Virus record (IMG/VR): IMGVR_UViG_3300042295_001683
Coordinates: 9,404 to 73,403 of that record
Reading direction: 5' to 3' (one strand)
Length of the DNA: 64,000 nucleotides
DNA from: a virus
Lineage: Duplodnaviria > Caudoviricetes
A program made the position numbers and the translations under genes. Below, one piece after another: positions 2,404-63,980 of this stretch. The first letter of the stretch is position 1. Each line of letters begins with the position of its first letter. Below the pieces are notes generated by a model. It saw only the letters and a list, made by a program, of their open reading frames with translations. It was not told the DNA's origin and searched no databases.

Positions 2404-2417
2404 TGCCTTGATTTCCT

Positions 2418-2470
2418 TTGCTTTGTTTAACTCAATAACCTATTATTGATCGACCTATAGGTTTTGTCAA
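2418..2470 (-). promoter_or_regulatory. sigma70-type promoter, family shared with 34998 and 56332
   Basis: TTGACAAAACCTATAGGTCGATCAATAATAGGTTATTGAGTTAAAC on the minus strand. Confidence 0.7.
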
Positions 2471-2499
2471 CAGCAAAACCAAACTATTTTTATAGACAC

Positions 2500-2527
2500 A
2501 AAAAAAGCCGTCGCGAGTGCGTCGGCT
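2500..2527 (-). terminator. intrinsic terminator closing the type IV operon
   Basis: AGCCGACGC-act-CGCGACGGC(T) hairpin followed by a T run on the minus strand. Confidence 0.65.
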
Positions 2528-6575: not shown

Positions 6576-6603
6576 AAATATTTCTCGTACATCTACGGTG
6601 TTT

Positions 6604-7331: not shown

Positions 7332-7542
7332 TTTTAATATTGTATTTATTCAAAAGATCAATAAAATCACGAGAAGCATCAGCGCGTTTTTGCTGTATAG
7401 TCGCCAGTTGATCTTCAGTGTAAAAGTTCCTATTCATCAATGCCGTATCGTATTGAATAATTTTTACTTCAAGATTTAGCATTAACGCCATATCTTCTCG
7501 AACGCGATCTAGAGCGTGATTATATCCAGTCGCCTTATACAT
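7324..7542 (-). CDS. hypothetical protein
   Basis: coupled ORF. Confidence 0.55.
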   Translation of the reverse strand: MYKATGYNHALDRVREDMALMLNLEVKIIQYDTALMNRNFYTEDQLATIQQKRADASRDFIDLLNKYNIKND

Positions 7543-8305
7543 TGTTTACCTCCAAATAATCTTCAACAAATTTCACCCGATCACCCAAATCCATGCAGTC
7601 TTTTGGCAACTCCTTATAAGGCAAATCCAAATAATAGAGCATCCCTAAAAGCTGAGTATGCAACTTGAATATTAACGGTTGATTAATCGCCGCTTTGTAC
7701 TCACGCTCGACAAAAGGGATAGCGGGCGGGATTAATACAATCTTGCCAAAATACCGAGCCGTAACATTAAAGCAATCTTGCAAATACTCCATAACCTCAG
7801 ACTGTGTATGCTTATCTAACTCACCATTGACAACATCAGTAAGCAAGTAAGCAGCCATATCCAACGGTGTGCGATCGCATATAAAGCTAGGCTCGTCAAC
7901 TTCAAACCAGATATCTTCAGCTTTAGCCAAAATCTTTTGTTGCAAAAACAACCTAGTGCGGATATCCAATTTGTCGGACGGGTGGAAACCATGCTCCAAA
8001 AACACACTACTCGCATCAATAGGGATATATGGAATCCCTAGCTTTTGCGATAAGGCGTTTGCCAGTGTGGTTTTGCCCGTGCCATGTGCACCGCAAAGTC
8101 CTATTCCTATACAGGACTTTGCGGTGCGATAATCTGGATAAACAACCAATCTATCGTCTGGGATAAGCATTGCATAGCTAACCCTTCCACCAAACATAGC
8201 TTTCGCTTCGTCTTCAGTGTCAAATCCGCCATAAGCAATGCAGTTTAGGCCTCGGTCCTCAAACATCGCGTACCATTTTTTCATTGTCTTCACCACCAAT
8301 ATCAA
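7535..8305 (-). CDS. P-loop nucleotide kinase-like ATPase (AAA_28/NadR-like)
   Basis: IGLCGAHGTGKTTLA Walker A; ICDRTPLD. Confidence 0.8.
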   Translation of the reverse strand: MILVVKTMKKWYAMFEDRGLNCIAYGGFDTEDEAKAMFGGRVSYAMLIPDDRLVVYPDYRTAKSCIGIGLCGAHGTGKTTLANALSQKLGIPYIPIDASSVFLEHGFHPSDKLDIRTRLFLQQKILAKAEDIWFEVDEPSFICDRTPLDMAAYLLTDVVNGELDKHTQSEVMEYLQDCFNVTARYFGKIVLIPPAIPFVEREYKAAINQPLIFKLHTQLLGMLYYLDLPYKELPKDCMDLGDRVKFVEDYLEVNNV

Positions 8306-8501
8306 TTACTTCCTTGTCCAAGCACTGCATTATCAGTGCTAACTCGCCTTTTAGATCTTCTAGTGTTGTGCCAACAGGTGTTACTTCTTCGTGGCCCCAA
8401 CTGGTTAATTTGCCCTTACTATTTGGGTAAAACTCGCGGATAGCAAACAACTCATCGCCATTTTCAAGGGTTTGCTTTGAGATTCGATACGTCCAACTCA
8501 T
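8259..8501 (-). CDS. phage hypothetical protein
   Basis: MSWTYRI...AIREFY...GTTLEDLKGEL pattern common in phages. Confidence 0.65.
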   Translation of the reverse strand: MSWTYRISKQTLENGDELFAIREFYPNSKGKLTSWGHEEVTPVGTTLEDLKGELALIMQCLDKEVIDIGGEDNEKMVRDV

Positions 8502-8583
8502 TATTTAACCTCAGTTAAGTTCTGGCTATCCCAAAGAGCTTTTTGCGCTAGCCATGCTTGGATGTCTTCAATTTTGACGATCA

Positions 8584-8826
8584 TTATCCTTTACGCTCCT
8601 TATTCCTTAATCCAGCTTCTCTAAGCGTGCTTAGAACTACTGCCGCAGTCCAAACGCATGTAAACACTGCAATAAATAGCAATCCCTTACCTAATGGCTG
8701 CCATACGAACCAGAAAAAACCCGCGATCGGTATCAGAAAAACAAAAGTTAAAGCGAAACAACCGCCAAAAGTTGATGCTGTTGCTTGTAGTTCTTCCTTA
8801 CTGTCAGACTCAAATAATCTAGCCAT
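8584..8826 (-). CDS. small membrane protein (2 TM)
   Basis: two hydrophobic segments. Confidence 0.55.
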   Translation of the reverse strand: MARLFESDSKEELQATASTFGGCFALTFVFLIPIAGFFWFVWQPLGKGLLFIAVFTCVWTAAVVLSTLREAGLRNKERKG

Positions 8827-9356
8827 TATCCTTTACTCTCCTGTGTGTCTAAATCACCGTTGTATCTTCCAGTCTCTGAGTAATCATGCCTTGGGTAAGC
8901 CGTCTCAGCAAAAACAATTTGACCGATTCGCATCATTGGATAAATAGGTTGCCAAGCCCAAAGACGATGATTTAGTAATTCTAAAGTCAGCTTTGAATTA
9001 TTAAAACCACCATCAATCCATACTGCCAAAACGTGCCCCCATCCTGATCGCCCTCTACTTGACTTAAGTCTAAACTCTGCTGAGTAATTACTCGGCATAT
9101 TGAAAGTCTCGTAGGTACAAGTCAGAATAAAACTTAGTGGCGATACCAAAAACGGGTTTGATTCTGAGTATTTGGTTAAGTCATGAGTAGTAAACTCTTG
9201 ACCTGTTAGACATCGTTTAAGCCAGTTATTCTCAGTTTTCAGTGTGTAGCCTATCCGCACATCGAGTGATTGTGGGTTAAGCATTGCTTTGTCAAATGGC
9301 ACGATAACGCCTTTTTCTTCGCAAAGCTTTTCGATTTCGTGGTCAACTAGCGTCAT
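8826..9356 (-). CDS. dcd: dCTP deaminase
   Basis: LNPQSLDVRIG, KSSRGRSG, WIDGGF, LTLEL, RIGQIVF. Confidence 0.88.
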   Translation of the reverse strand: MTLVDHEIEKLCEEKGVIVPFDKAMLNPQSLDVRIGYTLKTENNWLKRCLTGQEFTTHDLTKYSESNPFLVSPLSFILTCTYETFNMPSNYSAEFRLKSSRGRSGWGHVLAVWIDGGFNNSKLTLELLNHRLWAWQPIYPMMRIGQIVFAETAYPRHDYSETGRYNGDLDTQESKG

Positions 9357-9544
9357 TCGTAACTCTCGCTTTCCAAAATAGTAATCAATCCAGTGTCAAT
9401 CATTTTCATCATCAAAGGATTTGTTTGCACTAAATCCCAGTTATACCAAGTAGGCTTTTGATTAGCCAAAAAAGATTCTAAAAGCTTCCAGTTCTTTCCT
9501 GCTAATTTGCGAATCCATCGAAAGTTAGTTAAAAATCTATACAT
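9353..9544 (-). CDS. hypothetical protein
   Basis: coupled ORF. Confidence 0.5.
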   Translation of the reverse strand: MYRFLTNFRWIRKLAGKNWKLLESFLANQKPTWYNWDLVQTNPLMMKMIDTGLITILESESYE

Positions 9545-9964: not shown

Positions 9965-10197
9965 AGCCTCCTAATCTTCTGTAAATCATCAGCATTGCAA
10001 TTAAGCACATTGCAAAGCGCGTCAATTAGGTCAAATTCCAAGAACCTGTAACAACCCTGCTCTAACTTTTGGATTTTGCGTAGATTGCATCCCTGTAGCT
10101 CTGCAAAATTAGCTTTTAGCCAAGCATCGCACTGCTTAGCTAATTCTTTTTGTGTTAGCGATCGCGCTTTGCGTAAGCGCTTTAGGTTTAGCTGCAT
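9961..10197 (-). CDS. Xre/Cro-type HTH regulator (start re-assigned to MQLNLK)
   Basis: LKRLRKARSLTQKELA...IQKLEQG...LCNVLNC. Confidence 0.8.
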   Translation of the reverse strand: MQLNLKRLRKARSLTQKELAKQCDAWLKANFAELQGCNLRKIQKLEQGCYRFLEFDLIDALCNVLNCNADDLQKIRRL

Positions 10198-10421
10198 GAT
10201 TTTAGTTCTTGGTATTTGCGTTCTAATTCTGGTAGTTCGCATTCGAGATCCCCGTTGACGGTTAACTCGTACCATTTACCAGTAGATTTAGAATACTCAT
10301 ATGAATATTGATCCAACTCTTTATTCCACCAAATACTAGAGTTATCTTCATTACGGACATACGCCGCACCTTCAAACTCTATCAAGGTTGTAGTTCTTGT
10401 GGTTTCTCTAATTATTTCCAC
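10188..10421 (-). CDS. hypothetical protein
   Basis: GAGG RBS; first gene of leftward operon. Confidence 0.6.
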   Translation of the reverse strand: MEIIRETTRTTTLIEFEGAAYVRNEDNSSIWWNKELDQYSYEYSKSTGKWYELTVNGDLECELPELERKYQELKSCS

Positions 10422-10444
10422 ATTGTTACCTCATTAACTACTAA

Positions 10445-10560
10445 TCACTATACTATCTACTACCCCCTAAAAGGATACTTTTTACTTATATAATTAGATG
10501 AGAAGCAGTGACAATACTAATCATTTGTGTATTGACTATCCCTCAAAAGGGTAGTAATGT
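10445..10560. promoter_or_regulatory. divergent promoter region with two related operator-like boxes
   Basis: TACCCCCTAAAAGGATA (10461) and TATCCCTCAAAAGGGTA (10537), the latter between TTGACT and AGTAAT. Confidence 0.45.
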
Positions 10561-10979
10561 ATATACAGAAAGCAATAACACAGGAAAAAGCAATGACTAC
10601 AGCAGCACAACTCGCACCAATCAAAAACGCAATCGCATTAGAGTTGCAAGACTTGAGAGAAAACCACGAATATGAGAAAACCCAATGCCAATCGGCGATC
10701 GCTAAAGGCGACTTTGTAAGAGCTTCACGCTCTATGCATGAGTGCATGATTTGGGAATACAATCAAAATTTTGCCAATCAATTCAATCTCGATAAAATCG
10801 AATGTGCCGCAAAATTTACTAATGAGATTCAAACCGTTATGGGTTCTCTCATGGCTAACATCCTTTGCACAGTATCGAATCCACGCGCCGCCGATCTTGC
10901 TTTGCAAGACGCTCAAAAGGAGCAATACAAGTTTTTGGTTAAGGTGCAAAAGATGATCGCTCGTAGAGAGGCTGCTTAA
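10557..10979 (+). CDS. hypothetical protein (probable start MTTAAQ)
   Basis: AGGA RBS after promoter. Confidence 0.65.
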   Translation: MYIQKAITQEKAMTTAAQLAPIKNAIALELQDLRENHEYEKTQCQSAIAKGDFVRASRSMHECMIWEYNQNFANQFNLDKIECAAKFTNEIQTVMGSLMANILCTVSNPRAADLALQDAQKEQYKFLVKVQKMIARREAA

Positions 10980-32565: not shown

Positions 32566-33135
32566 CATTACCCAATAGTCTAGCCATAGTGCTACGTTAT
32601 AAGGCGATCGCGCGATCGCCTTTTTTGTTGGATAAATTAGTTGTAAATAGTACTTGACAAATAATATTTAAGCGTTTAATATTATATTCAAGGTTAAACA
32701 TACAAAAGGAGCAAGACCATGACTAAGATTGAAGTTATTGAAGCGATTAACCAAGCATCTAAAGCTTGGGAAGATGTATACTATATTGTTGTCTGTCGAT
32801 ACATGACAAATAGGAAATACGGGGGCTTAGTAAGAACTTACAGCTATTTTTACGAAGGCCCGTCACTAGAAAGAGCTTTTGTAAATGCACAAGATGCGTT
32901 TAAGGAAAGAGATGCAAAGGTTACTTTAGTGACGCTATCTCATGCCAATTCTTTTCTTGGGGTAGAAACCGAACTAAGCAAAGAAGCTGTTGTCTAACAG
33001 ATCATTACCCAATAGTCTAGCCATAGTGCTACGTTATAAGGCGATCGCGCGATCGCCTTTTTTGTTGGATAAATTAGTTGTAAATAGTACTTGACAAATA
33101 ATATTTAAGCGTTTAATATTATATTCAAGGTTAAA
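32566..33135 (+). repeat. 133-bp direct repeat (32566-32698, 33003-33135) comprising a terminator and a promoter
   Basis: identical by eye; AAGGCGATCGCGCGATCGCCTTTTTT hairpin then TTGACA-N17-TAATAT. Confidence 0.92.
32719..32997 (+). CDS. hypothetical protein
   Basis: AAGGAG RBS; lies between the 133-bp repeats. Confidence 0.65.
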   Translation: MTKIEVIEAINQASKAWEDVYYIVVCRYMTNRKYGGLVRTYSYFYEGPSLERAFVNAQDAFKERDAKVTLVTLSHANSFLGVETELSKEAVV

Positions 33136-33160
33136 TATACAAAAAACAAAGGACAAACAA

Positions 33161-34997: not shown

Positions 34998-35045
34998 TTG
35001 ACAAATACAGGATATCGATCAATAATAGATCGTTGAGTTAAACAA
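34998..35045 (+). promoter_or_regulatory. sigma70-type promoter, family shared with 2470 and 56332
   Basis: TTGACA-N17-AATAAT...GAGTTAAACAA. Confidence 0.65.
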
Positions 35046-35059
35046 GCAAGGCAAAAACA

Positions 35060-37210: not shown

Positions 37211-37511
37211 CTTCCAATCAGCCGATCACTTAACCAGAAGTTTCACCACTATCGCCTCTCTTCCAATCAGCCGATCGCTTAACCAAAAGTTTCACCATTC
37301 TGAGTTTCCAAAAATTGCAAATAACCTTGCCTTCCAATCAATTGATCGTCTAACCACTAGTTTCACCATGAACTAGAGCGCCGCTTTACAGCCTGTATCG
37401 GTACTTCCAATCAGCCGATCGCTTAACCAAAAGTTTCACTGGACAAAATGACAATTTTATATGTCAGCTACCTTCCTTCCAATCAGCCGATCGCTTAACC
37501 AGAAGTTTCAC
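37211..37511 (-). CRISPR. mini CRISPR array: 5 repeats of 36 bp and 4 spacers (36, 37, 35, 13 nt reading from the leader)
   Basis: repeats at 37211-37246, 37260-37295, 37331-37366 (degenerate), 37404-37439, 37476-37511; minus-strand consensus GTGAAACTTYTGGTTAAGCGATCGGCTGATTGGAAG. Confidence 0.93.
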
Positions 37512-39240
37512 CTAACAGATCCCAAAAACCAAGCTGAGAGCCAATATTAGGATCGATTTGCGCGGATCGCTTACGAGATTGCAATTTAGAGTCGGCTTTA
37601 GATAGTGATTTTAAATCTTGCCATAGCTCAAAGTCTTGTGGTGATTGGTTTTCAGAGTTTGCGCGAGTGGTTAGGTTGCGATCTAGCTGTAAATCATTGT
37701 CTGGTAAGGGCTTAAGCTTATCAGCTTCCAATCTTTTATCAGTACTATTTACAGCCCCGCTTTCGCGGTTGATTGCGGGAGTTGTTTCTCCTCCCGATCC
37801 TTTCTTACTCTTGCGAGTCTTACTCGGTTGGCGCTTCTTCCCATGCGTTGCATGATCCACGCCCTTAAATTCCCCCGATGAAGCGGGGTATGGTATCAGT
37901 ACCAAGCCTTTAAAAGCAACATTACGGATAACGGTTGAGGCGTTGTTATCTGCGTTGTCACCATGACCACAATTCAAGCATTTAAAAACAGCTTGAGATG
38001 GTCGAAACTTTTCGGAATAGTAGCCACACTGAGAGCAACCTTGAGAAGTGTGCGGTGCGGGTACTTTCACAAATATTCTTTCTGATGCTTTAGATTTAGT
38101 CTCTAGCATCGTCTTTGTTTTACCGATCGCCACATCATGAAGCGATTTATTTAAACCAGCTTTAGCAGCCGATCCGTTGGGTAGAAAAGCGCCATTTTCA
38201 CCAGCTTTCGCCTTTGGTGCGCGTACCATATTTTTAACTTTGGTATCTTCAATGGCGATGCTTTGATATTCACTTACATATTTTGAAGTGAGCTTATGGA
38301 TAAAGCGATCCCTTTGCCTAGCGATTTTAAGATGCGCTTTAGCTAGTTTAGAGCGTTTAGCTTTTAGCCTGTTAGAGCCATCTTTTGAGCGAGAGATAGA
38401 GCGCTGAATACGAGCTAATTTCTTAGCTTGCATCTTTGCGTAACGCTTAGATTTGTGTAGTCTCCCATCACTATCTGCAATAGGAGCGACTACACCAAAA
38501 TCTAAACCTACTTCTTGCTTTTTTGCTGGTTTAACGGGCTTTACATCTACCGTGCTAGTGAATTGCACATAATAACCATCAGCTTTTTGGACGATGCGTA
38601 CAATCGTATGATTGCCAGCATAGCGACGGTAGAATCCCTTGCATTTGATTTGTCCTAGTCTTGGATAATCAATTAATGCATTGTCATTACCCAAGGGCAA
38701 AATATTAACGTATATCCGACCGTTGCCATTAGAAAAGCTTTCTAATTTATCAGCTTTCTTTTTGTAACGTGGTCTGCCTTTTTTTCCCTTGCGGTACTGA
38801 GTCCATGCATCAATTAGGTTATCCACAACAGATCGCCGTGATTCGCCATCAATAGAGTGTAGAAAATCAGGACACCGCATATTAGCGATAAAGCGATAAT
38901 TTTTAACGTGCTTAAATGGCTCTTCAATATCCCGATGTTTGCGGATGTCGCATTTATCAGGATAGTAAGCACAGCAAAGCCCGTATTGATTATCAGGATT
39001 TACATACTCAATCCCGTCGATTTTGCATGATTTTCGCCATTGCCATACTTCAGGACTATACTCTGCCCATTCTTGTTTTGCCCTCCAATAACGTTGCTGA
39101 TCTTCCTCAAGCAGACTTAAACCAACATTCCATACCCATTTAAGTTGAGTAAGCCACAAATCAATTTGTGTGCTTTGCTCAATCGTGGGAGACAACTTAA
39201 ATTCAGTTATCTTTTTAGTAGTGGCTTCATTGCTAGTCAT
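37495..39240 (-). CDS. TnpB-like type V effector (C2c8/V-U2-like compact Cas12)
   Basis: EFKLSPT...WVWNVGL; RuvC-I VGLDFG, RuvC-II IAIED, HTSQGCSQC/CLNC Zn ribbon, RuvC-III NADNNAS; abuts CRISPR array; no tnpA nearby. Confidence 0.85.
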   Translation of the reverse strand: MTSNEATTKKITEFKLSPTIEQSTQIDLWLTQLKWVWNVGLSLLEEDQQRYWRAKQEWAEYSPEVWQWRKSCKIDGIEYVNPDNQYGLCCAYYPDKCDIRKHRDIEEPFKHVKNYRFIANMRCPDFLHSIDGESRRSVVDNLIDAWTQYRKGKKGRPRYKKKADKLESFSNGNGRIYVNILPLGNDNALIDYPRLGQIKCKGFYRRYAGNHTIVRIVQKADGYYVQFTSTVDVKPVKPAKKQEVGLDFGVVAPIADSDGRLHKSKRYAKMQAKKLARIQRSISRSKDGSNRLKAKRSKLAKAHLKIARQRDRFIHKLTSKYVSEYQSIAIEDTKVKNMVRAPKAKAGENGAFLPNGSAAKAGLNKSLHDVAIGKTKTMLETKSKASERIFVKVPAPHTSQGCSQCGYYSEKFRPSQAVFKCLNCGHGDNADNNASTVIRNVAFKGLVLIPYPASSGEFKGVDHATHGKKRQPSKTRKSKKGSGGETTPAINRESGAVNSTDKRLEADKLKPLPDNDLQLDRNLTTRANSENQSPQDFELWQDLKSLSKADSKLQSRKRSAQIDPNIGSQLGFWDLLGETSG

Positions 39241-39890: not shown

Positions 39891-42800
39891 TTACATACTC
39901 AACGCCGCCGATCGTGCCATCTCCCTTTGAATTTGCAAAGCGATCTCAGTAGCATTACCGCTACCAGTCGTCACATTTACGTTATAGGTTTTGTTACCGC
40001 CCGAATTGTTCAATACGTTCTTAGTCTGATTTGCAGGTAGGACATTAGAGCCTCTAGGCAATGTCACAAGCTCAGCACCTCGTTCTCCTACCAATGCAAT
40101 ACCGCCGCGGAAGTTTGTAACACCACTAGCAAAAGCAGGAACTTTTCCTACCCCTACAGCGCCGCTAAGTGGTGAAGCCCCTTTGGCGACTGATAGAGCG
40201 CTGATAATTTGCTGTGCAGACTTACCTAAAATTTGCTGTATCTCAATCGCAGACGCTTTATCTAGCGCCCTTTGTTGCTCTTTAAATACTCTCTCACGTT
40301 CGATTTTCTGATCCTCAAACGCCCGATCAAGCGCTAGCTCTTTCTCTTTTTGAGCTAACTTAATCGTCTCTAGCTCAGCATCAGCAGCTTTCCTGAGTGC
40401 TAAGTCCTCGTTAGTTTGCTGTAGTTTTAAAGCACGTTCTTCATCGGCTTGCTGCTTTTTAATTGTTGCAAGTTCACCTCTCTCGAAAGCTAATTTACTA
40501 GCCTGTAATTCAGCTTCGATTCTTTGTTTTTCAGGTTTGAGTACAGTGTTCTCAAAGTTCAACTTAGCAGCGTTTTGCTCAGCATCAAAAGCCAACTTAG
40601 CAGCGTTTAATTCAGCTTCAAAAGCCTTGTCACTAGCTCTCTTGACCTCTGTGCGCTTTACATCTTCAGCTTTATCGATTTCAAGCTGCTTGGCTTTGTT
40701 GGCTTTCTCTAATTCGTCCAATGCAAGTTGTACTTTTTTCTGCTCTTCACCCGTAGCGATCGCGGATACTTGAGCTATTTGCTTGGCTTGAGCAACTAAC
40801 TGTTCTTGGCTTTGTACTCCGCCCTGTCCTTGGGTAGCTGCTTGTGCTCTAATGCGATTCTCTTCTTCGATTTGCGCTGCAATCCTAGCCCGATCTTCGG
40901 GCTTGGCAGTAGCGATCGCGCCTTCATTACTGATTAATTGCTTAGCTTTTGACAAAGCCTCAGATGCTTGTTTATCACGCTGAGCGCGTTGCGCTGCAAA
41001 AGCTTCATCGTCTTTACGTTGCTTTTCTGCTCTCTGTTCCTTAAGTGCATTTTGCTTGTCATCAAAATCCTGCTTGAGTTTGTTTAGTTTCTCCTCGTTT
41101 GCACGTTTCTTGGCATCAAGAGCATCCTCAAGTTGTAGTTTTTTGGCATTCTGAGCGTCGTCAAATGCGCGTTGCTTATCTTGTAAAGCTAGGGTTTGCT
41201 TTTCCTTTAGTACCTCTGTTTCTAGCGCTTGCTTGCGATCTAGCTCACCTTTTGCGAGTGCATTTTTTTCTTCAATTGCTTTGATTGCATTGGCATTCTC
41301 ACGATCTCGCTTGGCTTTGGTGTCTTCAAAGGATCTCTTGATATTTTTTTCAGCGTCTTGGTTTTGGGCTTCCCTGATTCTTTCAGCTTGCTTGCGTTGT
41401 TCATCGGTTACTTCAGCTTCCTTTGCTGCTGTACTATTTACCGCAGCAATTCGATCTTCTAAAAGTTTTTTGCGTTTGGAGAATATTGCAATCTCATTGT
41501 TTAGAAGTTTTTGTAAAGCAGGGTTATCAGAAGCGCCTTGAGCTTGCGCTTTCAAGGAATTAATAGCTAAATCAATATTTTCAACCTGCTCCTTGGTTTC
41601 TTTATTAAATTTCGCTACTCCTTCGGCACCCAATCTATTTTTAGCCCCTGTAGCGTCAATGGCTACACCGTATTTATTCAATACGTTGAGTGATTCGTCA
41701 AGGTCTTTGGTATATTCCTTTTGATTTTCAGCAAATTCAATTACTTCTTTTTGTCGCCCCCTTTGCGCCCCAAAAATATCAAATGTTGCGCCTTGTCTTC
41801 CTAATCCGTCGTCAGTAGTTTGCTCAGGTGGCGCTAGCTTACCGCGTAGCGCTTGTAATTCTGCTAATTTTTGCTTGTAATCCTGCAAGCTTTTTGTCGA
41901 TTCCGAAACATTAAAAGCTGATGATAATTGCTTACCTACTGCAATTAGTGGAATCGCAGCAATAGCAATTAACCCCAATGGCGTTGTCAGTGCATACGCC
42001 GCTACACTAGCAGCCGTGAGCGCACCTGTTAGCACTCCCGTACCTACAGCAAGTGCCCCTTGAGCGATCGCCGCTAATCCCGCTTTAGTGGTTAGCAGTG
42101 TAAAGGCATTACTAGCTAGGGTAGTCGCAAAGGTGAGGGCTTTAGTACCAAAAGCTGCAATACCAGCCGCCCCACCAAATAACTTTAACCCCTCAACAAA
42201 AGCTGGAGCCGCCGCGCCGATCGCTGTAAGAGCCGCACCTAATGTAACAATACCGCCAACTAGTCCAATAATCGCGCCTAAACCTACTTGAATTGGTGCG
42301 GGTAATTGGTTGAATACATCAACAGCCGCGCCTACAACCGCTATTAATGGCGCAAAAGCTGTTTGTGTACCACGTCCTAAATTTACTAAAGCTTCATTGA
42401 TTTTGTTGATTGCTGTTGTTATTTTCCCTTCAGCAGATTTAGCAACAACATCAAAACCAATTTGCGCTTTGCCCGAAGCATTGCCAACAGCTACTAGATT
42501 CTCATTAAAGTTCTTAAGGTCGTCGTTAAGTAAAGGGACAACAGCAGTTAAACCATCAATATCTGTAAAGATTTTAGATAGCTGACTACTGGTGGTTAAG
42601 CCAGCCACTTTTAATCGATTGAGTACACCTGTTAATCCTTCAGTTTTAAGCGTTGTAGCAGCGTTAGTGATCCCAATAGCCTTCAATGCTTCTTTTGCGG
42701 ATTGCGTGGGCTTAACCAAGTTGACGATCGCCTGTCTAATACCACTAACCGCAGTCTCGGTTTTAACGCCTTTAATCGTAACGCTTGCTATGGCAGCGTT

Positions 42801-43826
42801 TAACTCGTTTAGTGTTACGCCCGCACTTGCAGCAATTGGCGCAACTTTACCAAGCTGACCAGCAAATAATCCAATTGTAGTTTTACCTTTATCTTGGACT
42901 ACTGCTAATTGGTCTACTACCTTAGCAGCATCGCTAGCAGCTAAACCATAGGCATTCAAAATTGAGGTAGTTGCATCAGCTACCGTAGCTGTGTCAGTAA
43001 AACCAGCCTTAGCACCTAATACCGATACTCTGGCAATCTCTGAAGCATCAGCAGCATTAATAAATCCACTAGATAGAATTTCGTATTGTGCTGTTAATAT
43101 TTCGGTGCTGGTTACTTGATTGTTTAAATCCTTTGATAGCTTGATAGCTGTATTAGCAAAAGCGTTAGATTGAGTAGATAATGTCGCTACTTTAGTTTTG
43201 GCAGTATCAAAAGCCAAAAAAGCTTGATTAGCAGCACTAGAAACTTGATTGAAAGTAGTACCAATCCGTTCTAATGTCTGCGATGTATTTTGTAGTTGCT
43301 CAGCTAAATCTCGCGCTTTCTCAGTAGTAGCGCCAATGAACTGATTAAAAGTTACAGGACTCGCATCGTCAAAACCTTTCTTGATTTTGTCGAGATTAAG
43401 TTTATTGATTTCACTCGCTAGAGCTTTAGCGTTAGCAATATCAGCAGGATTAATCAGCTTTGCATCTATAGCTGCTAATTGCTGTTTGTATCGTAGTAAT
43501 TCTTGTGCAACTCGCGCCGCCTCTTTGTCAGCGCCATCTGATACCCGTACAGCGCTAGCTGCTTTTTGTTTTTCTAGTTGCGAGATAAAAGCAGCCGATC
43601 TAGTTGCGTCGTTTGCGCCGCTTTGTGCCTTTTTCTTCTCTAAAGCATCAACTTCTAGCTGTAGTTTTTTGAGCGAAGCTTCAGCAATTTTTGCTGATTC
43701 CGCGCCGCCCAAATTTAAGACGGGTGCTTTGATATTACCGATCGCAGATTGCAAAGTTTTGATGTCACTGATCGCCTTGTCGATGCCATCAAAACTTACT
43801 CTAATTGCGTAATTCTCATCAGCCAT
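39891..43826 (-). CDS. tail tape measure protein
   Basis: 1311 aa, Ala-rich; TP901-like core YEILSSG...VQDKGKTT; C-terminal FASG...LVGERGAELV. Confidence 0.92.
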   Translation of the reverse strand: MADENYAIRVSFDGIDKAISDIKTLQSAIGNIKAPVLNLGGAESAKIAEASLKKLQLEVDALEKKKAQSGANDATRSAAFISQLEKQKAASAVRVSDGADKEAARVAQELLRYKQQLAAIDAKLINPADIANAKALASEINKLNLDKIKKGFDDASPVTFNQFIGATTEKARDLAEQLQNTSQTLERIGTTFNQVSSAANQAFLAFDTAKTKVATLSTQSNAFANTAIKLSKDLNNQVTSTEILTAQYEILSSGFINAADASEIARVSVLGAKAGFTDTATVADATTSILNAYGLAASDAAKVVDQLAVVQDKGKTTIGLFAGQLGKVAPIAASAGVTLNELNAAIASVTIKGVKTETAVSGIRQAIVNLVKPTQSAKEALKAIGITNAATTLKTEGLTGVLNRLKVAGLTTSSQLSKIFTDIDGLTAVVPLLNDDLKNFNENLVAVGNASGKAQIGFDVVAKSAEGKITTAINKINEALVNLGRGTQTAFAPLIAVVGAAVDVFNQLPAPIQVGLGAIIGLVGGIVTLGAALTAIGAAAPAFVEGLKLFGGAAGIAAFGTKALTFATTLASNAFTLLTTKAGLAAIAQGALAVGTGVLTGALTAASVAAYALTTPLGLIAIAAIPLIAVGKQLSSAFNVSESTKSLQDYKQKLAELQALRGKLAPPEQTTDDGLGRQGATFDIFGAQRGRQKEVIEFAENQKEYTKDLDESLNVLNKYGVAIDATGAKNRLGAEGVAKFNKETKEQVENIDLAINSLKAQAQGASDNPALQKLLNNEIAIFSKRKKLLEDRIAAVNSTAAKEAEVTDEQRKQAERIREAQNQDAEKNIKRSFEDTKAKRDRENANAIKAIEEKNALAKGELDRKQALETEVLKEKQTLALQDKQRAFDDAQNAKKLQLEDALDAKKRANEEKLNKLKQDFDDKQNALKEQRAEKQRKDDEAFAAQRAQRDKQASEALSKAKQLISNEGAIATAKPEDRARIAAQIEEENRIRAQAATQGQGGVQSQEQLVAQAKQIAQVSAIATGEEQKKVQLALDELEKANKAKQLEIDKAEDVKRTEVKRASDKAFEAELNAAKLAFDAEQNAAKLNFENTVLKPEKQRIEAELQASKLAFERGELATIKKQQADEERALKLQQTNEDLALRKAADAELETIKLAQKEKELALDRAFEDQKIERERVFKEQQRALDKASAIEIQQILGKSAQQIISALSVAKGASPLSGAVGVGKVPAFASGVTNFRGGIALVGERGAELVTLPRGSNVLPANQTKNVLNNSGGNKTYNVNVTTGSGNATEIALQIQREMARSAALSM

Positions 43827-56217: not shown

Positions 56218-56331
56218 TGTTTAACTCCTTTGCTTGTATGAGATTTTACCACTTTGAAGACCCTAATCTTGTACGCCGATACCCTACTTTGTAAACAAAT
56301 ATTAAGAGTTTAAATATTTTTGGTTTTACTA

Positions 56332-56383
56332 TTGACAAAACCTATGGACTCGATCAACAATAGGTTATCGAGTTAAACAAAGC
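56332..56383 (+). promoter_or_regulatory. promoter closely matching the 2470 promoter; drives the csf1 operon
   Basis: TTGACAAAACCTATGGACTCGATCAACAATAGGTTATCGAGTTAAACAAAGC. Confidence 0.7.
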
Positions 56384-56384
56384 C

Positions 56385-56816
56385 ATGAACGCCAACCAAA
56401 TCGCACAAATCGCAACCGCTTTAAACGTCTCTCCCAACCAAATCAAGAGAGCTGAGGAATGGAAGAATGTACTTTTTGTTGTAGTTCAAGGGATGGGTGC
56501 TCGTTTTGTATCTAAGAAGGTGATTAAGGACATGAACACTACATTTAAAGGGATTGAAATTACTGAAGGTAGCTCTGTTTGGGTTAAGGTACATGATGGA
56601 AGATCTCACAAATGGGATATAGCTACAATTTCTAAAATCAATGAAGACAACACCAAATTTTCCTTGAGAGAATTACCTTTTATTGTCGATATTGCAACAG
56701 GTGAAGCGACTCTTTTGGGCAAAGAAGCAGAACATTTTGAAGTTGGATATCCTTACAAATGGGATTACATGACTAGAAAAAGCAACTCTCCAACCACAGG
56801 TGTGATTTATGCCTAG
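56385..56816 (+). CDS. hypothetical protein (cassette cargo)
   Basis: QIATALNVSPNQIKRAEEWKNVLFVVVQGMGARFVSKK. Confidence 0.7.
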   Translation: MNANQIAQIATALNVSPNQIKRAEEWKNVLFVVVQGMGARFVSKKVIKDMNTTFKGIEITEGSSVWVKVHDGRSHKWDIATISKINEDNTKFSLRELPFIVDIATGEATLLGKEAEHFEVGYPYKWDYMTRKSNSPTTGVIYA

Positions 56817-56869
56817 AGGATGCGACCACGGACATTGAATAAAATAAACTTAACCAGCCATCCTATAGG

Positions 56870-57559
56870 GTGGCTTTTGCCATGAATAATAATAATTACT
56901 GCTACCTTTGCGCCGCACCTAAAGCTGATAAACCGTTAGTTCTCAAAGATTCATTCACTGCACATAGTAGCGCTAGATGTCCTGATTCAAAGCATCTATG
57001 CGATCGCTGTGCATGGGTGATTCCGTTAAGGGCTTTTTATTGGAATGAAGCGAAGGGGAAATACAGCACATTATTTGCTAGGGGCTGGTCATGGCTTCTT
57101 TCTGCTGATAATGCGTATGGTTCTTACCCTAAATTTGGTAATCAACATACTGAGGGGGGGAACACGCTAGAAATAGTTGATCGCCTCCCCACACGCGCCC
57201 AAATCAGGACTTGGTTGCTTGATCCGCCAAAGCCGCCCTTTACTATTTGCATTGCGGAATCAGGGCAAAAACATATTTTGCCCTGGGCGCTAGAGGCAAC
57301 TAATCGCGATTATTTCCCAGTGCAATTTGAGCTCGATACGTTGCATATATATCGATCTGCCTTTACGCATTTACTCGCACGGTACGAGGAGCTTATGGCT
57401 ATGGGATTCTCAAAAACCGAGATTAATAGTGGCAACTATCGCTCTGACAAATTAGCTAAGTGCATCAGTGAGTACGCAGCATGTGAGGCTGTGATCGCTG
57501 CTAAGCGTGGTAATCGCTTGCTAGATTTGGTTAGCTATGTTGCAAAAGTATCAGAGTAA
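56870..57559 (+). CDS. csf1: type IV CRISPR large subunit Csf1 (Cas8-like)
   Basis: CYLC...DSFT...S..LCDRC Zn finger; WLLDPPKPPF..CIAESGQKHILPWA; VQFE. Confidence 0.8.
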   Translation: MAFAMNNNNYCYLCAAPKADKPLVLKDSFTAHSSARCPDSKHLCDRCAWVIPLRAFYWNEAKGKYSTLFARGWSWLLSADNAYGSYPKFGNQHTEGGNTLEIVDRLPTRAQIRTWLLDPPKPPFTICIAESGQKHILPWALEATNRDYFPVQFELDTLHIYRSAFTHLLARYEELMAMGFSKTEINSGNYRSDKLAKCISEYAACEAVIAAKRGNRLLDLVSYVAKVSE

Positions 57560-57571: not shown

Positions 57572-58285
57572 ATGAAAAACTGTATATTTTGCAAGAAAGA
57601 ATTTGATGAAGGTAAAACAAAACGGCTTTGCTGTACTAGATCGTGTGCAGCAAAGTTTTCCACAGAGAAAAAAGGCGGATCAGCATGGAAACACGAAGAG
57701 ATCGAATATCTTGAAGATAATCTTGGTGTTTTGCCTTTTCCTGTATTGGTTAAATCTTTTAAGAAATGGTCCAAAAAACAAGGCTACTCAGAACGGACAG
57801 ATACTGCGATAGAAGTTCAAATCCATCGCATGACATCTAACTCGCACTTAAGCCGCAAATGCACTGAAGATAATTTTACTGTGTACGAGTTGTCTAGAGC
57901 TTTAGGAATATCAATGGATCGAGTTCGCTCATTTGTCCGCAATAGGAAATTGCAACCCCGCAAAATTGCCAGAAATCAGAATGCAGTTAAACGTAAAGAC
58001 GCGATCGCTTTAGTCCTGAATAATCCCTCGCATTTTGCTAACTGCGATCGCGATAACTTATTCTGGCTGCTAGAAGATGCAGAGCTAGTCGAAAAAGTCA
58101 AAAACTCAGAGCCGTCAACTAGAGGTTTTCGCCGTGCTGTGCGTTGTTATGCTCCTGATGGCATTAGAGTTTATTCTGGTGTAAAAGAAGCTGCTAGAGC
58201 TAATTTTGTTAAGCATAACTGTATATCCCAAGCGATCGCTAGGGGTGGCAAAAGCGCTGGTATGAAATGGGAGTGGGTGGAGTAA
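57572..58285 (+). CDS. DNA-binding protein (Zn finger, HTH, NUMOD1-like C-terminus)
   Basis: CIFCKKEF..CCTRSCA; FTVYELSRALGIS; YSGVKEAAR...ISQAI...SAGMKWEW. Confidence 0.6.
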   Translation: MKNCIFCKKEFDEGKTKRLCCTRSCAAKFSTEKKGGSAWKHEEIEYLEDNLGVLPFPVLVKSFKKWSKKQGYSERTDTAIEVQIHRMTSNSHLSRKCTEDNFTVYELSRALGISMDRVRSFVRNRKLQPRKIARNQNAVKRKDAIALVLNNPSHFANCDRDNLFWLLEDAELVEKVKNSEPSTRGFRRAVRCYAPDGIRVYSGVKEAARANFVKHNCISQAIARGGKSAGMKWEWVE

Positions 58286-58323
58286 ATTTGCTAAACTATT
58301 AGCAAAATCATACTTACAAAATT

Positions 58324-58659
58324 ATGGCATCCAAGAAAGATCCGCGCGAGATTGCTAAGCAAGTCAGAACACTTTTGCTTGATGTTGCGATGCCAGTCCC
58401 TCAACAAAACGATCGCCTGCGTGAGTTGGAATTGATTAACGAAAATATGCGGCTTGAGATTCAACGCATGGATCGTATGAGTTCGATGACTGCATTGCAT
58501 GGTGTCCCTACGACTTTATGCTTGATGGGTCGTGATAATGCGATCGTTGAAGTTGAAAAGTCAACTATTGAGGTTACTTACATTCCTGATGAACACACAT
58601 CTAAAGCTATTGAGTATCTTCGTGATGTCAAAAATTGGCAGATGTTGATCGGACAGTAA
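58324..58659 (+). CDS. hypothetical protein
   Basis: 111-aa ORF. Confidence 0.55.
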   Translation: MASKKDPREIAKQVRTLLLDVAMPVPQQNDRLRELELINENMRLEIQRMDRMSSMTALHGVPTTLCLMGRDNAIVEVEKSTIEVTYIPDEHTSKAIEYLRDVKNWQMLIGQ

Positions 58660-58743
58660 GCTAAAAACATCCGCGCCCTACGATATCGCCATCAAGGGGC
58701 GCGATAATGCTAGAATCGCTGTAAATTCGTTTATATAGAATAT

Positions 58744-59295
58744 GTGCCTAAACCAACAAAACCAAAGCCAATAAATTGGGTAGCTATACGAGCCGAATAT
58801 GAGGCGGGGGGAGTCACTTTACAGCAGCTTGCCGACAGATTAAATGTTAGCCTAAGAACCGTCTTAAGACGCTCTAAGAAAGAGTCTTGGGTGAAGGGGA
58901 TGCAGGAGATGTCACAAAGCGTGTCACAAGAAGTGTCACAAAAAGTCAGGGAAAGGGTAGTAGCTAAACGAGTAGAAAAAGCACTTAGCGATTTAGATAT
59001 TATCAATGAAGTTATCGGAATTACTCGCAATTACATTGTCGAAAATCCTGACAACTTTAAAACAACGGGTGAGGCGATCGCATCGTTAGATAGGATGCAA
59101 AAAATTAAGCTTGAGTACAGTCAAGAGCGTATAGAGAAATGGTTGTATGAAAGAGGACTTACTACAGTTCCCATTGCCGAATTTGCGTCACCAATCGAAG
59201 ATAGCAAAAGCGAAAGCTCAAACCCATTCGCAGACATCCTCGAATCAACAAGAGAAGATACAACTACATCCCCTCCAGCAAACAATAGCCAATAG
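58744..59295 (+). CDS. terS: terminase small subunit
   Basis: NWVAIRAEYEAG..TLQQLADRLNVS..TVLRRSKKESW HTH, directly upstream of TerL. Confidence 0.75.
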   Translation: MPKPTKPKPINWVAIRAEYEAGGVTLQQLADRLNVSLRTVLRRSKKESWVKGMQEMSQSVSQEVSQKVRERVVAKRVEKALSDLDIINEVIGITRNYIVENPDNFKTTGEAIASLDRMQKIKLEYSQERIEKWLYERGLTTVPIAEFASPIEDSKSESSNPFADILESTREDTTTSPPANNSQ

Positions 59296-60577
59296 CCAAG
59301 CTAAATACACGATCGCAGTATCAGGGCGGCGCTTTGGTAAAACCATCTTGCAGATATACAAAGCCCTTGAGCGCGTTGCGGTTGGTGCGCCATATAACCC
59401 AGTAGCGCCGCCTGTAGTGGTGTTAGCTGCTCCTACCTTGGTTATGGCTAGGCGATTACTCTGGAAGCAGTTGCTAAACACCTTACGCAATCACAAAGCG
59501 GTTGAGAATGTCAGCAAATCAGAATTTACGATTACATTTAAGAATCCCGATCCGTATAAGTTCTATATGCCCGATCTAATGATCATGGGACTTAACGATG
59601 GTGACGGCGATCGCGCTCGTGGTTTGCGCCTATGGCATTTTGGGGGTGATGAGTGGCAAGACTGGAAAGCAAGTATTTTTCCAGAGATTATTCAACCTGC
59701 GCTATCTGATACGCAAGGCAGTACAGCGCTATTTACTTATACTCCCAAGGGCAAGGTTAATCATACCTATGAGGCTTATCAAAACGCACTTGTTGCCGAT
59801 CCTAGGGTATGGCAAGCGTTTAAATATAAGAGTATCGAGAATCCGCACCTTAAACCAGAAGACATAGAGTTACTTAGGAATAGCTTAACGCCCCGCTTAT
59901 TCCGTCAAGAGATGGAAGCATCATTTGAAACTTTTGAGGGACAATTCTTTGAGACATTATCTGAATCGCACATCATCAGCGATCGCGACTTACCTAAAGA
60001 TTTCATTTATCGCATATTGTCAGTTGACTGGGGCGCGGTAAATCCTAGAGCCTTGGTAGTTTGCGCATTTATCAAAGACGGCTTTTATCACTGGTTTGTT
60101 GTTGATGAGTGGCGCGTGCCTAGGACAATGCAGGGGCAAGCAATATTAGAAGATGATTTTTTATACGAGTGCCATAAATTAGCTATGAAGTGGCGCGTCA
60201 ATAGAGCCTTTGGTGACCCATCCAGACCTGATGCGATCAAAGCTTTGCGCTCTTGGAAACCAAAAGAAGGGCAAGTATTCAAAGAACCATTTAAGAATTA
60301 CTGCACTGAATCACGTGGCGCGGTTAATGATTTTATTAAGGGCATTGACTTAATGAGTAGCGACTTCTACCACGAACGGATCAAGATTGTGGATACATTG
60401 CCTCAGTTCTTTGAGGAGTGCCAATCGTATCACCGCAAGAAGGATAAGTATGGCAATATCACAGAAGAAGAAGCAGATAACCAGGTGACGCATGGCATCG
60501 ACTGTTTACGGTATGCGATCGCTTCTATGCCTCCTGTTAACCGTCAATCTAGTTTTGGCAGTAGCAGGGCTATGTAA
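59147..60577 (+). CDS. terL: terminase large subunit
   Basis: LHPLQ, SGRRFGKT, ARGL...DE, TPKG, SVDWG, HGIDCLRYA. Confidence 0.92.
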   Translation: MKEDLLQFPLPNLRHQSKIAKAKAQTHSQTSSNQQEKIQLHPLQQTIANSQAKYTIAVSGRRFGKTILQIYKALERVAVGAPYNPVAPPVVVLAAPTLVMARRLLWKQLLNTLRNHKAVENVSKSEFTITFKNPDPYKFYMPDLMIMGLNDGDGDRARGLRLWHFGGDEWQDWKASIFPEIIQPALSDTQGSTALFTYTPKGKVNHTYEAYQNALVADPRVWQAFKYKSIENPHLKPEDIELLRNSLTPRLFRQEMEASFETFEGQFFETLSESHIISDRDLPKDFIYRILSVDWGAVNPRALVVCAFIKDGFYHWFVVDEWRVPRTMQGQAILEDDFLYECHKLAMKWRVNRAFGDPSRPDAIKALRSWKPKEGQVFKEPFKNYCTESRGAVNDFIKGIDLMSSDFYHERIKIVDTLPQFFEECQSYHRKKDKYGNITEEEADNQVTHGIDCLRYAIASMPPVNRQSSFGSSRAM

Positions 60578-62387: not shown

Positions 62388-63980
62388 TCATGATTCCGAC
62401 TCCGTTTCATCTTCTTCATCATTTTCGCTGTCATCTTCATCATCAGTCTCTACCGATTGGCTTTGATTAGCAGCAACCGTCTCAACAGGCTGAGCGATCG
62501 CCACAATCTTCTGATCTTTTGGTAAGAAGTTAACCCTATGCAAAATCTCAGTAGCTGCTTCTTCAGTTAAGCCTTTATTAATTACCTCAAAGATAGTGCG
62601 AATCAGATTCACATCAGCAGGGGCAAGAATAAAGCTCAAATCTACGTCAATTGTACCGTGATCCTCGGTTACGTCTTCACCTTCCCACATTGCCCAATGA
62701 CAAAAAACCTGCTGTGAGCATGATTCTTTGTTAACCTCATACTCTTGTAACCCTGCTTCGTTTTGCCCTGCTTTGATGCTCACCTCAGTAGCAGATTGTT
62801 GGACAAATGACTCACCCAAGAAATTGAAAACAGTCTGCTTAATCAATGCCTCTAATCTATCTAGCGCTTGAATCATAGGTGCAACGCTATTTGCGTCAGC
62901 TTGCAAATAGTAGACCTTAGCAGCCCCGATTTGAGTTATCACTGTCTCAATGACAGCATCGCCGCCTGTAGACAAAGGATCGCGTTTCTCTGGAATAAAA
63001 TCAATATGCTCACGAACTGCCGTTGGCTGCATCTTGCGAACTGTTGCAAGCCAATCGCTAAATACTTGGTAGTAAGTATGATTCTTTTGCTGCAAATCAA
63101 GCAATGGCGGAATCGTATCCCATGGGTTAGCACTGGTTACTGAGTAAAGCACAAAGGGGATTTGACTTAGTGGCTTACCATTGGTATCTAGCAATGGCTT
63201 AGGCGATTCTACCTGTACATATTCCTTTTCGCCTTTGTCATTAGTTTCAATGCAAGTTACCGATCGCATCACAGCATAATAAATACGATCTTCTTCTTGC
63301 ACTTTGATTAGCTCGTATTCCCAGCAATAATTTTTCATTGATTGCTTGTAACGGGTTTCGCTAATCACCTCACTGCGATCGATGGTAATGTGCTTGAGTA
63401 ACACCGATCCATCATTAGTGTATTCGTAATCCTTAATGTCGATATCAAGGCGTGGGATTAGCACTGAGTAAGGACGCAAATCTAATTGTTGTTCAACTGC
63501 ACGATTAGGAATTTCGCCAAAATTAGGATAAAGGGTAAGCACCCCTACAAAGCCATCTCTAACAGCCATGCGATCGGCTTCGAGAAAGAATGCTCTAATT
63601 GATGTTCCGCGCTTGTCAAAGTTTTTGGAGGCATTGATAACCGACTCAGGTACATTGCCACTAAGCACCCATTTACTTAGCAAACTAGATACAATCTTGA
63701 CGGCTGGTTTAAAGAAGTTAACAAATAGCGATCGCCTTAATCTAAAATACCACTCTTTCGGTGTTTCGGCTGGCATGAGAGGGAGATACTCCTCAGCCAA
63801 ATCATCAATAATCTGATCGAGGTTTTCGCCATAAATCCAAGCGCTTTGACCTTCATAGAAATCTATGCAACGTCTGACATTAGCTTGCTGTCTTTGATAA
63901 GCAAGGCTCTTTAATGTTGGGTTGTTATCGTCGCCAAGTATGTTACCGCCCCGATAGCCTTTAGCGATCGCTTCTGGCAA
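62388..63980 (-). CDS. portal protein (DUF4055-like); frame stays open to the window edge
   Basis: YLP..PAET...Y.FRLRRS.F.N; IPFV; PPLLDL...N; SATE; acidic tail. Confidence 0.85.
   Translation of the reverse strand: MPEAIAKGYRGGNILGDDNNPTLKSLAYQRQQANVRRCIDFYEGQSAWIYGENLDQIIDDLAEEYLPLMPAETPKEWYFRLRRSLFVNFFKPAVKIVSSLLSKWVLSGNVPESVINASKNFDKRGTSIRAFFLEADRMAVRDGFVGVLTLYPNFGEIPNRAVEQQLDLRPYSVLIPRLDIDIKDYEYTNDGSVLLKHITIDRSEVISETRYKQSMKNYCWEYELIKVQEEDRIYYAVMRSVTCIETNDKGEKEYVQVESPKPLLDTNGKPLSQIPFVLYSVTSANPWDTIPPLLDLQQKNHTYYQVFSDWLATVRKMQPTAVREHIDFIPEKRDPLSTGGDAVIETVITQIGAAKVYYLQADANSVAPMIQALDRLEALIKQTVFNFLGESFVQQSATEVSIKAGQNEAGLQEYEVNKESCSQQVFCHWAMWEGEDVTEDHGTIDVDLSFILAPADVNLIRTIFEVINKGLTEEAATEILHRVNFLPKDQKIVAIAQPVETVAANQSQSVETDDEDDSENDEEDETESES

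Follow-up and report, generated by a model that had tools for sequence, protein, structure and literature searches.

A type IV-B-like Csf system with an unlinked csf1 gene in a tailed cyanophage

Introduction

Subtype IV-B of the CRISPR-Cas systems is defined, according to the relevant passages of PMC8175902 and PMC7038947, by the absence of both Cas6 and a CRISPR array. An example is carried on a plasmid of Mycobacterium sp. JS623, where the locus comprises csf1, cas11, csf2, csf3 and a cysH-like gene (excerpts of PMC7937560 and PMC8175902). The function of type IV-B is described as unknown, and Csf1 and Csf3 are unresolved in the only IV-B structure (excerpt of PMC8175902). This report concerns a related system in a 64,000-nucleotide (nt) stretch of viral DNA, hereafter the window, which spans positions 9404–73403 of the single 73,403-base-pair (bp) contig of IMG/VR record IMGVR_UViG_3300042295_001683. 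Its source is a tailed cyanophage of about 73–80 kilobases (kb), and its csf1 gene, encoding the Cas8-like large subunit, lies far from the operon that holds the other csf genes.

The system possesses the IV-B gene set (cas11, csf2, csf3 and a cysH-like gene, with no DinG/RecD helicase) and, like IV-B, lacks adaptation genes, nuclease and helicase and resides on a mobile element. It departs from the IV-B definition in its cas6, cupin gene, gene order, phage carrier and unlinked csf1; a CRISPR-like mini-array of five repeats is also present elsewhere in the window. Compared with the JS623 type, the operons of cyanobacterial and phage relatives end with csf1 instead of beginning with it, and here the gene is unlinked; the system additionally contains cas6 and a cupin gene, and a tailed cyanophage takes the place of an actinobacterial plasmid as the carrier. 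Cas6 is reported in only 12 IV-B loci (excerpt of PMC7038947), and the word Cyanobacteria is absent from the main text of that article, although its supplements may list such loci. The accessible part of the 2025 classification update (PMC12669027) keeps IV-B array-less and does not mention this variant, and a full-text literature search returned no paper pairing type IV-B with a cyanophage. Type IV-A2 loci, as portrayed in parts of PMC7038947 and PMC11519345, likewise have type IV cas genes clustered without one for the large subunit. The present system differs from these in being of the cas11/cysH type rather than the DinG type, and in keeping csf1 under purifying selection elsewhere in the genome.

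Two separate loci

The operon occupies 2586–6575 on the minus strand, within a replication and nucleotide-metabolism module. Its six genes are cas11, the type IV small subunit (6051–6575; PADLOC Cas11_2_IV, 5.7e-13); csf2, encoding Cas7 (4850–6058; PADLOC Csf2_0_IV, 4e-43); csf3, encoding Cas5 (4171–4857; PADLOC Csf3_0_IV, 4.9e-47); a cysH-like gene of the PAPS-reductase family (3515–4183; PF01507, 1.1e-17); a cupin-domain gene (3166–3525; PF07883, 7.2e-9); and a Cmx6-type cas6 (2586–3173; profile matches). A terminator-like hairpin with a run of seven T follows 3′ of cas6 (2499–2527, minus strand). All six genes were assigned in profile searches, and neither a Csf1-like gene nor a helicase is among them. 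Two small open reading frames (ORFs) upstream of cas11, up113 and up128, are not Csf1-like either (hhalign probability 0.2 against the Csf1 profile). The csf1 gene (56882–57559, plus strand; 225 amino acids, aa) lies by itself where the packaging module begins.

An initial interpretation made from the letters of the window alone (the sequence-only reading) had described an operon without csf1 and a Csf1-like gene at 56870–57559 on the opposite strand, and both descriptions are borne out. It had also put the two loci about 50 kb apart, which is correct inside the contig (50.3 kb) and fails for the path by way of the contig ends, which measures 18.4 kb, to which the gap between the ends must be added. 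No terminal overlap was found at the ends of the 73,403-bp contig. In alignment with a complete relative designated G002, the right end of the contig falls at position 1 and the left end at position 74647, so that about 5.3 kb of G002 has no counterpart here.

G002 (the record behind locus L009) is 80,032 bp long, has direct terminal repeats, is rated 100% complete, and is colinear with the present contig at 87–99% nucleotide identity over aligned blocks. It carries the same split, with csf1 at 9998–10684 on the minus strand and csf2 at 58230–59432 on the plus strand, the two paths between the loci being 27.5 and 47 kb. Since this independent, complete genome has the same arrangement, the split is not an assembly artefact. 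All cas genes, csf1 included, are single-copy across the whole contig; therefore, no further csf operon is hidden outside the window. Two of the circumstances under which the sequence-only reading would have been mistaken, namely an assembly error and a second csf operon nearby, are thus both dismissed. A raw-read DNA run (X22) contained no reads of this phage.

Sixteen IMG/VR loci encode Csf1 relatives, and five of them (L003, L004, L005, L006 and L009) are of the split type. Upstream of csf1 these five have either a promoter unit (P, described below) plus a variable gene, or genes g133 and g333, and no cas gene in the available flank. At least seven further metagenome contigs of the split clade, 97–98% identical, are known (L043–L047, L058 and L103), and where their flanks are long enough, g143 is found upstream of csf1, or g237/terL downstream. 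The contigs of L007 and L015 start at or inside csf1. In neither this genome nor G002 is csf1 clustered with csf2 and csf3. Loci of homologues do show such clustering: 8 of 16 from IMG/VR, 9 of 11 from genomes and 52 of 80 from metagenomes.

Identity and conservation of Csf1

The assignment of csf1 is based on PADLOC, a fold model and invariant cysteines. The ORF is open from 56870, where there is an alternative GTG start, and the ATG at 56882 is the start conserved among relatives. The match to the type IV profile Csf1_0_IV (E 1.8e-27) is nearly full-length, with residues 7–221 aligned to model positions 21–211 of 227. A search of 5.8 billion proteins yielded 506 candidates, of which 216 are Csf1 homologues at E ≤ 0.001; the precomputed family PF27781 is attached to most Csf1 homologues among the matches listed. 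Four cysteines (C7, C10, C40 and C43, in a CxxC...CxxC arrangement) are invariant in 29 of 29 aligned homologues.

The AlphaFold2 (AF2) model of Csf1 has a predicted local distance difference test score (pLDDT) of 92.8. The top two matches of this model in a Foldseek search of the Protein Data Bank (PDB), 7xg1_A and 8rc3_G (probability 1.00, template-modelling score 0.45–0.53), are chains of type IV-A Csf complexes, for which the search output names no subunit, and the next match above probability 0.2 is a IV-A3 complex. The modelled layout, a Cys-rich N-terminus followed by a beta core and a helical C-terminus, agrees with that of Cas8(Csf1) as portrayed for type IV-A in excerpts of PMC11519345. 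Sequence searches of the PDB with Csf1, both as a single sequence and as a profile, returned nothing relevant.

The gene is intact in all seven split-clade copies examined. Over 21 within-clade pairs, the ratio of nonsynonymous to synonymous substitution rates (dN/dS) of csf1 is 0.07–0.41 (mostly 0.07–0.2); against G003, a relative with a contiguous locus, it is 0.11–0.14, and the within-clade values are no higher. For the operon, comparison of this genome with G002 gives dN/dS of 0.38 (cas11), 0.075 (csf2), 0.13 (csf3) and 0.18 (cas6). Judged by these ratios, both halves of the system, csf1 and operon, are under purifying selection.

These data bear on the proposal that csf1 is a decaying leftover of a deleted resident operon, or that the split is an assembly chimera. 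A remnant ORF beside csf1 does record deletions, and the contig lacks a terminal overlap. Against this stand the seven intact copies, their mostly low dN/dS, and the recurrence of the arrangement, both in a complete genome obtained independently and among contigs of several further samples. Such an origin retains next to no probability, and on these comparisons both artefact and decay can be regarded as excluded.

Promoter units and cassette genes

Each locus contains a copy of the promoter unit P. The csf1-proximal copy (56308–56405, plus strand; nhmmer 7.5e-31 with a profile that includes this copy) has its −35 box, TTGACA, at 56332–56337 and its −10 box, AACAAT, at 56356–56361. The cas6-proximal copy (2401–2492, minus strand) has a −35 box at 2470–2465 and the −10 box AATAAT at 2447–2442. 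With a consensus −35 and a near-consensus −10, these two strong copies are the best sigma-70-like matches of their regions (11/12 and 10/12). They form inverted repeats of each other over 2420–2453/56350–56383 (34 nt, 94% complementary) and 2457–2483/56319–56345 (27 nt, 93%), in agreement with the earlier claim that the promoter before csf1 copies the one after cas6. Within P, the inverted repeats GGTTTT..AAAACC and AACCTAT..ATAGGTT, as read off the sequence, cover the −35 box and the spacer/−10 region. Since the cas6-proximal copy lies downstream of cas6 and its terminator, it does not drive cas11–cas6. Outside the split clade, which has P at both loci, the unit occurs only in two further loci, L014 and L092; G003, L010–L013, L016–L018 and the Gloeobacter plasmid yielded none. 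A third, weaker copy at 34998–35054 (plus strand; nhmmer 5.3e-5) lacks the AACCTAT/ATAGGTT arms, lies upstream of a 106-aa gene, and has a counterpart in G002.

Both strong copies are followed by a variable gene: g143 (56385–56816, plus strand; first ~48 aa conserved in relatives) at the csf1 locus, and g99 (2104–2403, minus strand), a relative of which follows cas6-P in L092, at the cas6 locus. No homology between the two was found. For g143 there is no family match; AcrF10 was considered and set aside (E 0.094, below significance). Genes between P and the next gene, a small gene named here after its MPRGG start, vary among genomes that are otherwise 93–99% identical, and their exchange is bounded by P on one side and by the ATGCCTAG junction on the other. 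The full-length MPRGG gene, reg104 (1797–2111, minus strand), encodes a putative DNA-binding protein and has a dN/dS of 0.11 between this genome and G002.

At the csf1 locus the MPRGG gene survives as a nine-codon remnant, MPRGCDHGH* (56809–56838, plus strand), in which 25 nt from the 5′ end of a 60-aa-type MPRGG gene and its final few bases persist, the middle having been deleted. As the sequence-only reading had seen, it resembles the 5′ end of gene 1797–2111 and shares with it the ATGCCTAG stop/start overlap; the two agree at 20 of 23 bases. The remnant is found upstream of csf1 in four of five full-length contigs of close relatives. It is followed by an 8-bp hairpin and UUUUG (56856–56881, plus strand), ending three to six bases before the csf1 start, with a free energy of −12.6 kcal/mol as compared to −16.2 in L014. 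Stems read by eye fall into three variants (window type, L014 and L092) that differ at four positions and are all fully paired, three of the four having changed on both sides (compensatory). The hairpin fails the terminator rule of the scan because it has only four T, and from its sequence it looks like a weak terminator of the cassette.

Two recurring sequence elements were observed in and around these cassettes. A module made up of the first ~48 aa of g143 (MNANQIAQIATALNVSPNQIK...) heads otherwise different small genes at several positions: 56385–56530 in the window, 6519–6662 in L008, 8899–9036 in L010, 5472–5615 in L012, 4183 in L062 and 1229–1375 in L092, as well as between csf2 and csf3 in the complete relative G003. 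The stop/start overlap ATGCCTAR (..GCC TAR over ATG CCT) recurs at cupin>cas6, cupin>csf1, cysH>csf1 and variable gene>MPRGG gene junctions, for instance at 2104–2111, 3166–3173 and 56809–56816 in the window, at 8986–8993 in L001, and at the cysH/csf1 junction of L011 and L013. It may serve as microhomology for module exchange.

Gene order in relatives

The placement of csf1 in related phages, which had been put forward earlier as a check, was compared across loci; the same split is seen in G002, and csf1 is last in most relatives. A same-strand cluster cas11-csf2-csf3-cysH(-cupin)-csf1 occurs on plasmid pGMOR1 of Gloeobacter morelensis, and csf1 is last in 8 of 16 IMG/VR loci and in 4 of 11 genome-contig loci, the latter being cyanobacterial bins except for one labelled Polynucleobacter. 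For the metagenome loci a crude script rule (a core gene ≤2.5 kb upstream on the same strand) scores 40 of 80 as csf1-last, including L082, L089 and L090, in which csf1 is internal or the other core genes are convergent; 27 of the 80 are too short or outside any class. Placement of csf1 first, the canonical IV-B order, is seen in 12 of the 80 metagenome loci and 5 of the 11 genome loci, mostly at 25–32% identity; the genome loci belong to Dehalococcoidia, actinobacteria, Saccharibacteria and others.

Other arrangements include an operon divergent from csf1 (L081), operons in two convergent halves (L082 and L096), a ~4-kb gap between cas6 and csf1 that holds a TnpB-like gene (L074), and a gap of ~1.9 kb (L087). 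Given so many arrangements, csf1 shows unusual plasticity of position within this family, and the window is the extreme of a series. On this comparison of gene orders, csf1 as the last gene of the operon is taken to be the ancestral state.

Two loci, L014 and L092 (INTERMEDIATES), are intermediates in which cas6, P, variable gene(s), MPRGG gene, hairpin and csf1 are contiguous. L014, whose Csf1 is 76% identical, reads csf3, cysH-like gene, methyltransferase-like gene, cas6, P, 104-aa gene, 60-aa gene starting MPRGGNHGGGRPK, hairpin and csf1. L092 (75% identical) reads cas6, P, g99-like gene, terminator, second P, g143-like gene, 101-aa gene, 60-aa MPRGG gene, hairpin and csf1. The order in L092 shows that two P units stood in tandem before the split, and that the cassettes of the window, cas6-P-g99 and P-g143-remnant-hairpin-csf1, are therefore halves of one tandem pair. 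It had been proposed that csf1 replaced the regulator gene of a duplicated cassette; this is contradicted by L014 and L092, where csf1 is already downstream of the MPRGG gene.

The cas6 start in these loci copies that of csf1 over 14 codons (~40 nt) in L014 (1964–2010) and 20 codons in L092 (59–118), while the cas6 start of the window, ATGCCTAACTGC (3162–3173, four codons), equals the csf1 start of L011 and L013. The duplicated start indicates that the cas6-cassette module entered at the csf1 start codon.

Duplications involving csf1 were also observed. L055 (3665–10660) contains cas11-csf2-csf3-cysH-csf3-csf1-csf3-cysH-csf1, a tandem duplication with two csf1 copies, and L033 (146–2942) a tandem duplication csf3-cysH-csf3-csf1. 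In L012, two 23-aa fragments of the Csf1 C-terminus (6586–6654 and 7248–7316; 78–83% identical) lie 1.3 and 1.9 kb downstream of an intact csf1 and resemble leftovers of 3′-end cassette insertions.

Rearrangement of the operon

G003 is a complete relative of 75,523 bp with terminal repeats in which the locus is contiguous. All genes matched between it and this genome are colinear and co-oriented except for a block at 4171–9544 (~5.4 kb) that comprises a 63-aa gene, genes for dCTP deaminase and an AAA ATPase, cas11, csf2, csf3 and cysH. In G003 this block is inverted and lies directly upstream of csf1-g237-terL, g237 (57572–58285, plus strand, in the window) being the gene that follows csf1 in both types of relative, split and contiguous. 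It follows that csf1-g237-terL stayed beside the packaging genes, and that the block was inverted and moved.

A single inversion between the inverted cassettes would produce an L014-like order, yet a second inversion is needed to reach that of G003. A move of the block and an exchange with another phage are equally possible as the route of the split. A further proposal is that the inverted P copies make the 18–27 kb segment between them invertible, such that the population holds both split and contiguous isomers. The P copies are indeed inverted repeats, one inversion geometrically restores the L014-like order, and the phage encodes a RecT-like annealing protein. The repeats are short, however (about 65 nt, about 90% identical), and one isomer only was found in all five IMG/VR split-type contigs with upstream flank, in G002 and in at least three metagenome contigs (L044–L046), which makes continuing inversion very unlikely.

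A probable two-locus Csf system

The best explanation, to which a probability of roughly 0.68 is assigned, is that the split clade has a two-locus Csf system in which Csf1 joins the complex of the distant operon. In the ancestor, csf1 would have been the last gene of the operon. A module composed of cas6, P, variable small gene(s), MPRGG gene and hairpin would then have been inserted at the csf1 start, a stage kept in L014 and L092, and a later rearrangement with one breakpoint inside the cassette region would have carried the operon part away by nested inversions, a block move or exchange with another phage, leaving P-g143-remnant-hairpin-csf1 in place. Transcription of csf1 from P (56332), by read-through of the weak terminator hairpin, would give low, separately set expression. 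A low level would suit a subunit present once per complex, a stoichiometry inferred from type IV-A structures (PMC11519345, in part). The Csf1 protein would still join the Cas11/Csf2/Csf3 complex made from the distant operon, and reg104, the sole full-length MPRGG protein, could bind the operator-like repeats of both P copies in trans. Separate control of csf1 by the copied P through a weak hairpin is plausible on sequence grounds and, if real, would predate the split, its elements being already present in L014-like ancestors. That such control might switch the assembly of the complex, as proposed in the sequence-only reading, is a conjecture.

Several observations weigh against this two-locus reading. 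By TIGR03114, Csf1 scores 41.7 bits, as opposed to a curated cutoff of 140, and only residues 103–177 align. Contigs from RNA libraries contain only fragments of csf1 and the csf1-g237 junction, derived from relatives and possibly from DNA carry-over, and are too few and fragmentary for a transcript start to be defined. Because P lies downstream of cas6, sharing P does not by itself couple csf1 to cas11–cas6. As for reg104, searches gave no Pfam, PHROG or PADLOC match, its AF2 pLDDT is only 70, and no Foldseek match was found at E ≤ 0.001; the leads are HTH (helix-turn-helix) families in a protein atlas (scores 0.75–0.81), a sub-threshold RHH_1 match of the L014 homologue (E 0.028), and the source name "response regulator" on one of 28 homologues of the MPRGG protein. 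With HTH leads and no family or fold match, the label of regulator given to this gene earlier is unproven and is not upheld in that form; the MPRGG protein is a candidate regulator only.

The history of the operon adds to this side. Csf1 is 88% identical to that of G003 and 75–77% to those of L010–L014, whereas Csf3 is 78% identical to that of G003 and 82–85% to those of L010–L014; given this incongruence, the operon part could be an import rather than a relocated resident. The cysH is also of a different type from that of G003 (28% identity), and the operon is therefore a mosaic. Finally, L017 and L034 have a solo csf1 beside TnpB-like genes, their flanks being devoid of other csf genes, and csf2 was not found in the 3.5-Mb assembly containing L034; Csf1 may therefore have a role outside the complex.

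Such a role is the core of an alternative in which Csf1 acts independently of the Csf complex, either as a zinc-finger DNA-binding protein that works with g237 or with genes for packaging, or by serving as a decoy for the type IV systems of hosts. By corollary, the operon would work without a large subunit, as do type IV-A2 loci, which function without Csf1 (passages of PMC7038947 and PMC11519345). The solo genes of L017 and L034 fit this alternative, and so does the csf1-g237-terL adjacency common to split and contiguous relatives. It is nonetheless improbable, in that csf1 is clustered with csf2/csf3/cysH in most loci with enough flank, the operon of this genome has no other candidate large subunit, and Csf1 is equally conserved in split and contiguous lineages.

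A more specific role for the cassettes can also be envisaged. Anti-CRISPR (acr) and anti-CRISPR-associated (aca) operons have a strong promoter with inverted repeats, hypervariable small genes and a conserved small gene for a putative DNA-binding protein. The P cassettes resemble them by analogy of architecture, and near-identical genomes have exchanged the variable genes of these cassettes; no match to an Acr or Aca family emerged. It is conceivable, if unlikely, that the P-variable gene-MPRGG units are immediate-early, acr/aca-like cassettes, that the array-less IV-B system of this phage is itself a counter-defence system, and that Csf1 was captured by such a cassette and acts as the licensing subunit. 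Csf1, which in type IV-A reads target DNA together with Cas5, would then be dosed and timed apart from the Cas7/Cas11 backbone. Selection for uncoupling would be reflected in the progression that starts with an overlapping start, continues with a 0.6–1.4 kb cassette and a switch to the opposite strand, and ends at a separation of tens of kb.

Phage, habitat and neighboring elements

The contig has a G+C content of 41.5%. It contains 94 GCGATCGC (HIP1) sites; GCGATCGC is taken here to be the HIP1 element, typical for cyanobacteria. Genes identified by PHROG matches include those for the tape-measure protein (39891–43826), the large terminase, terL (59147–60577), and the portal (62388–63980), as well as a scaffold protein, RecT and DNA methyltransferases, with a DnaB-like helicase and a replication initiator in the 9.4 kb beyond the window. 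The PHROG matches thus mark a tailed phage, and the HIP1 sites give it a sequence signature of cyanobacterial type. Seventeen metagenome runs of lake or freshwater origin, spread over at least 16 studies, contain the csf1 locus, the source sample possibly among them, a run being counted when at least half of the locus's sampled words were present. Neither the csf1 locus nor Csf1 had a match in phage-database searches, and a plasmid-database search gave one match, Gloeobacter pGMOR1.

The mini-array (37211–37512) consists of five 37-nt repeats with spacers of 12, 34, 36 and 35 nt. Immediately before it comes a TnpB/Cas12-like gene of 581 aa (37495–39240, minus strand) that matches PADLOC Cas12u2 (1.9e-104) and the Pfam OrfB_IS605 and Cas12f1-like TNB domains. 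Array and gene are absent from G002 and G003 and present in L042 with the same spacers 2–4; no protospacer for these spacers was found among the collected loci, and the only exact IMG/VR match is the same array in L042. The array probably belongs to the TnpB/Cas12-like gene and not to the type IV system. TnpB/Cas12-like genes recur beside or within a few kb of csf1 in L017, L034, L071, L074, L093, L068, L070 and L100, the solo-csf1/TnpB-like regions being at 36–2099 in L017 and 7984–10669 in L034. This proximity may reflect either an insertion hot spot or a functional link. Elsewhere, at 32566–33144, a direct repeat of 142 nt occurs twice (99% identity, 437 nt apart) and contains a HIP1-rich terminator-like palindrome and a TTGACA promoter-like box.

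Significance

Type IV loci that have been scored as csf1-less (for example in parts of PMC7038947) may carry csf1 elsewhere on the replicon, which calls for caution in annotation. The graded intermediates among the relatives supply concrete constructs for testing. A widespread clade of lake cyanophages that keeps csf1 under selection while unlinked amounts to a natural experiment, which suggests that supply of the large subunit in trans, with a separate schedule of expression, is possible.

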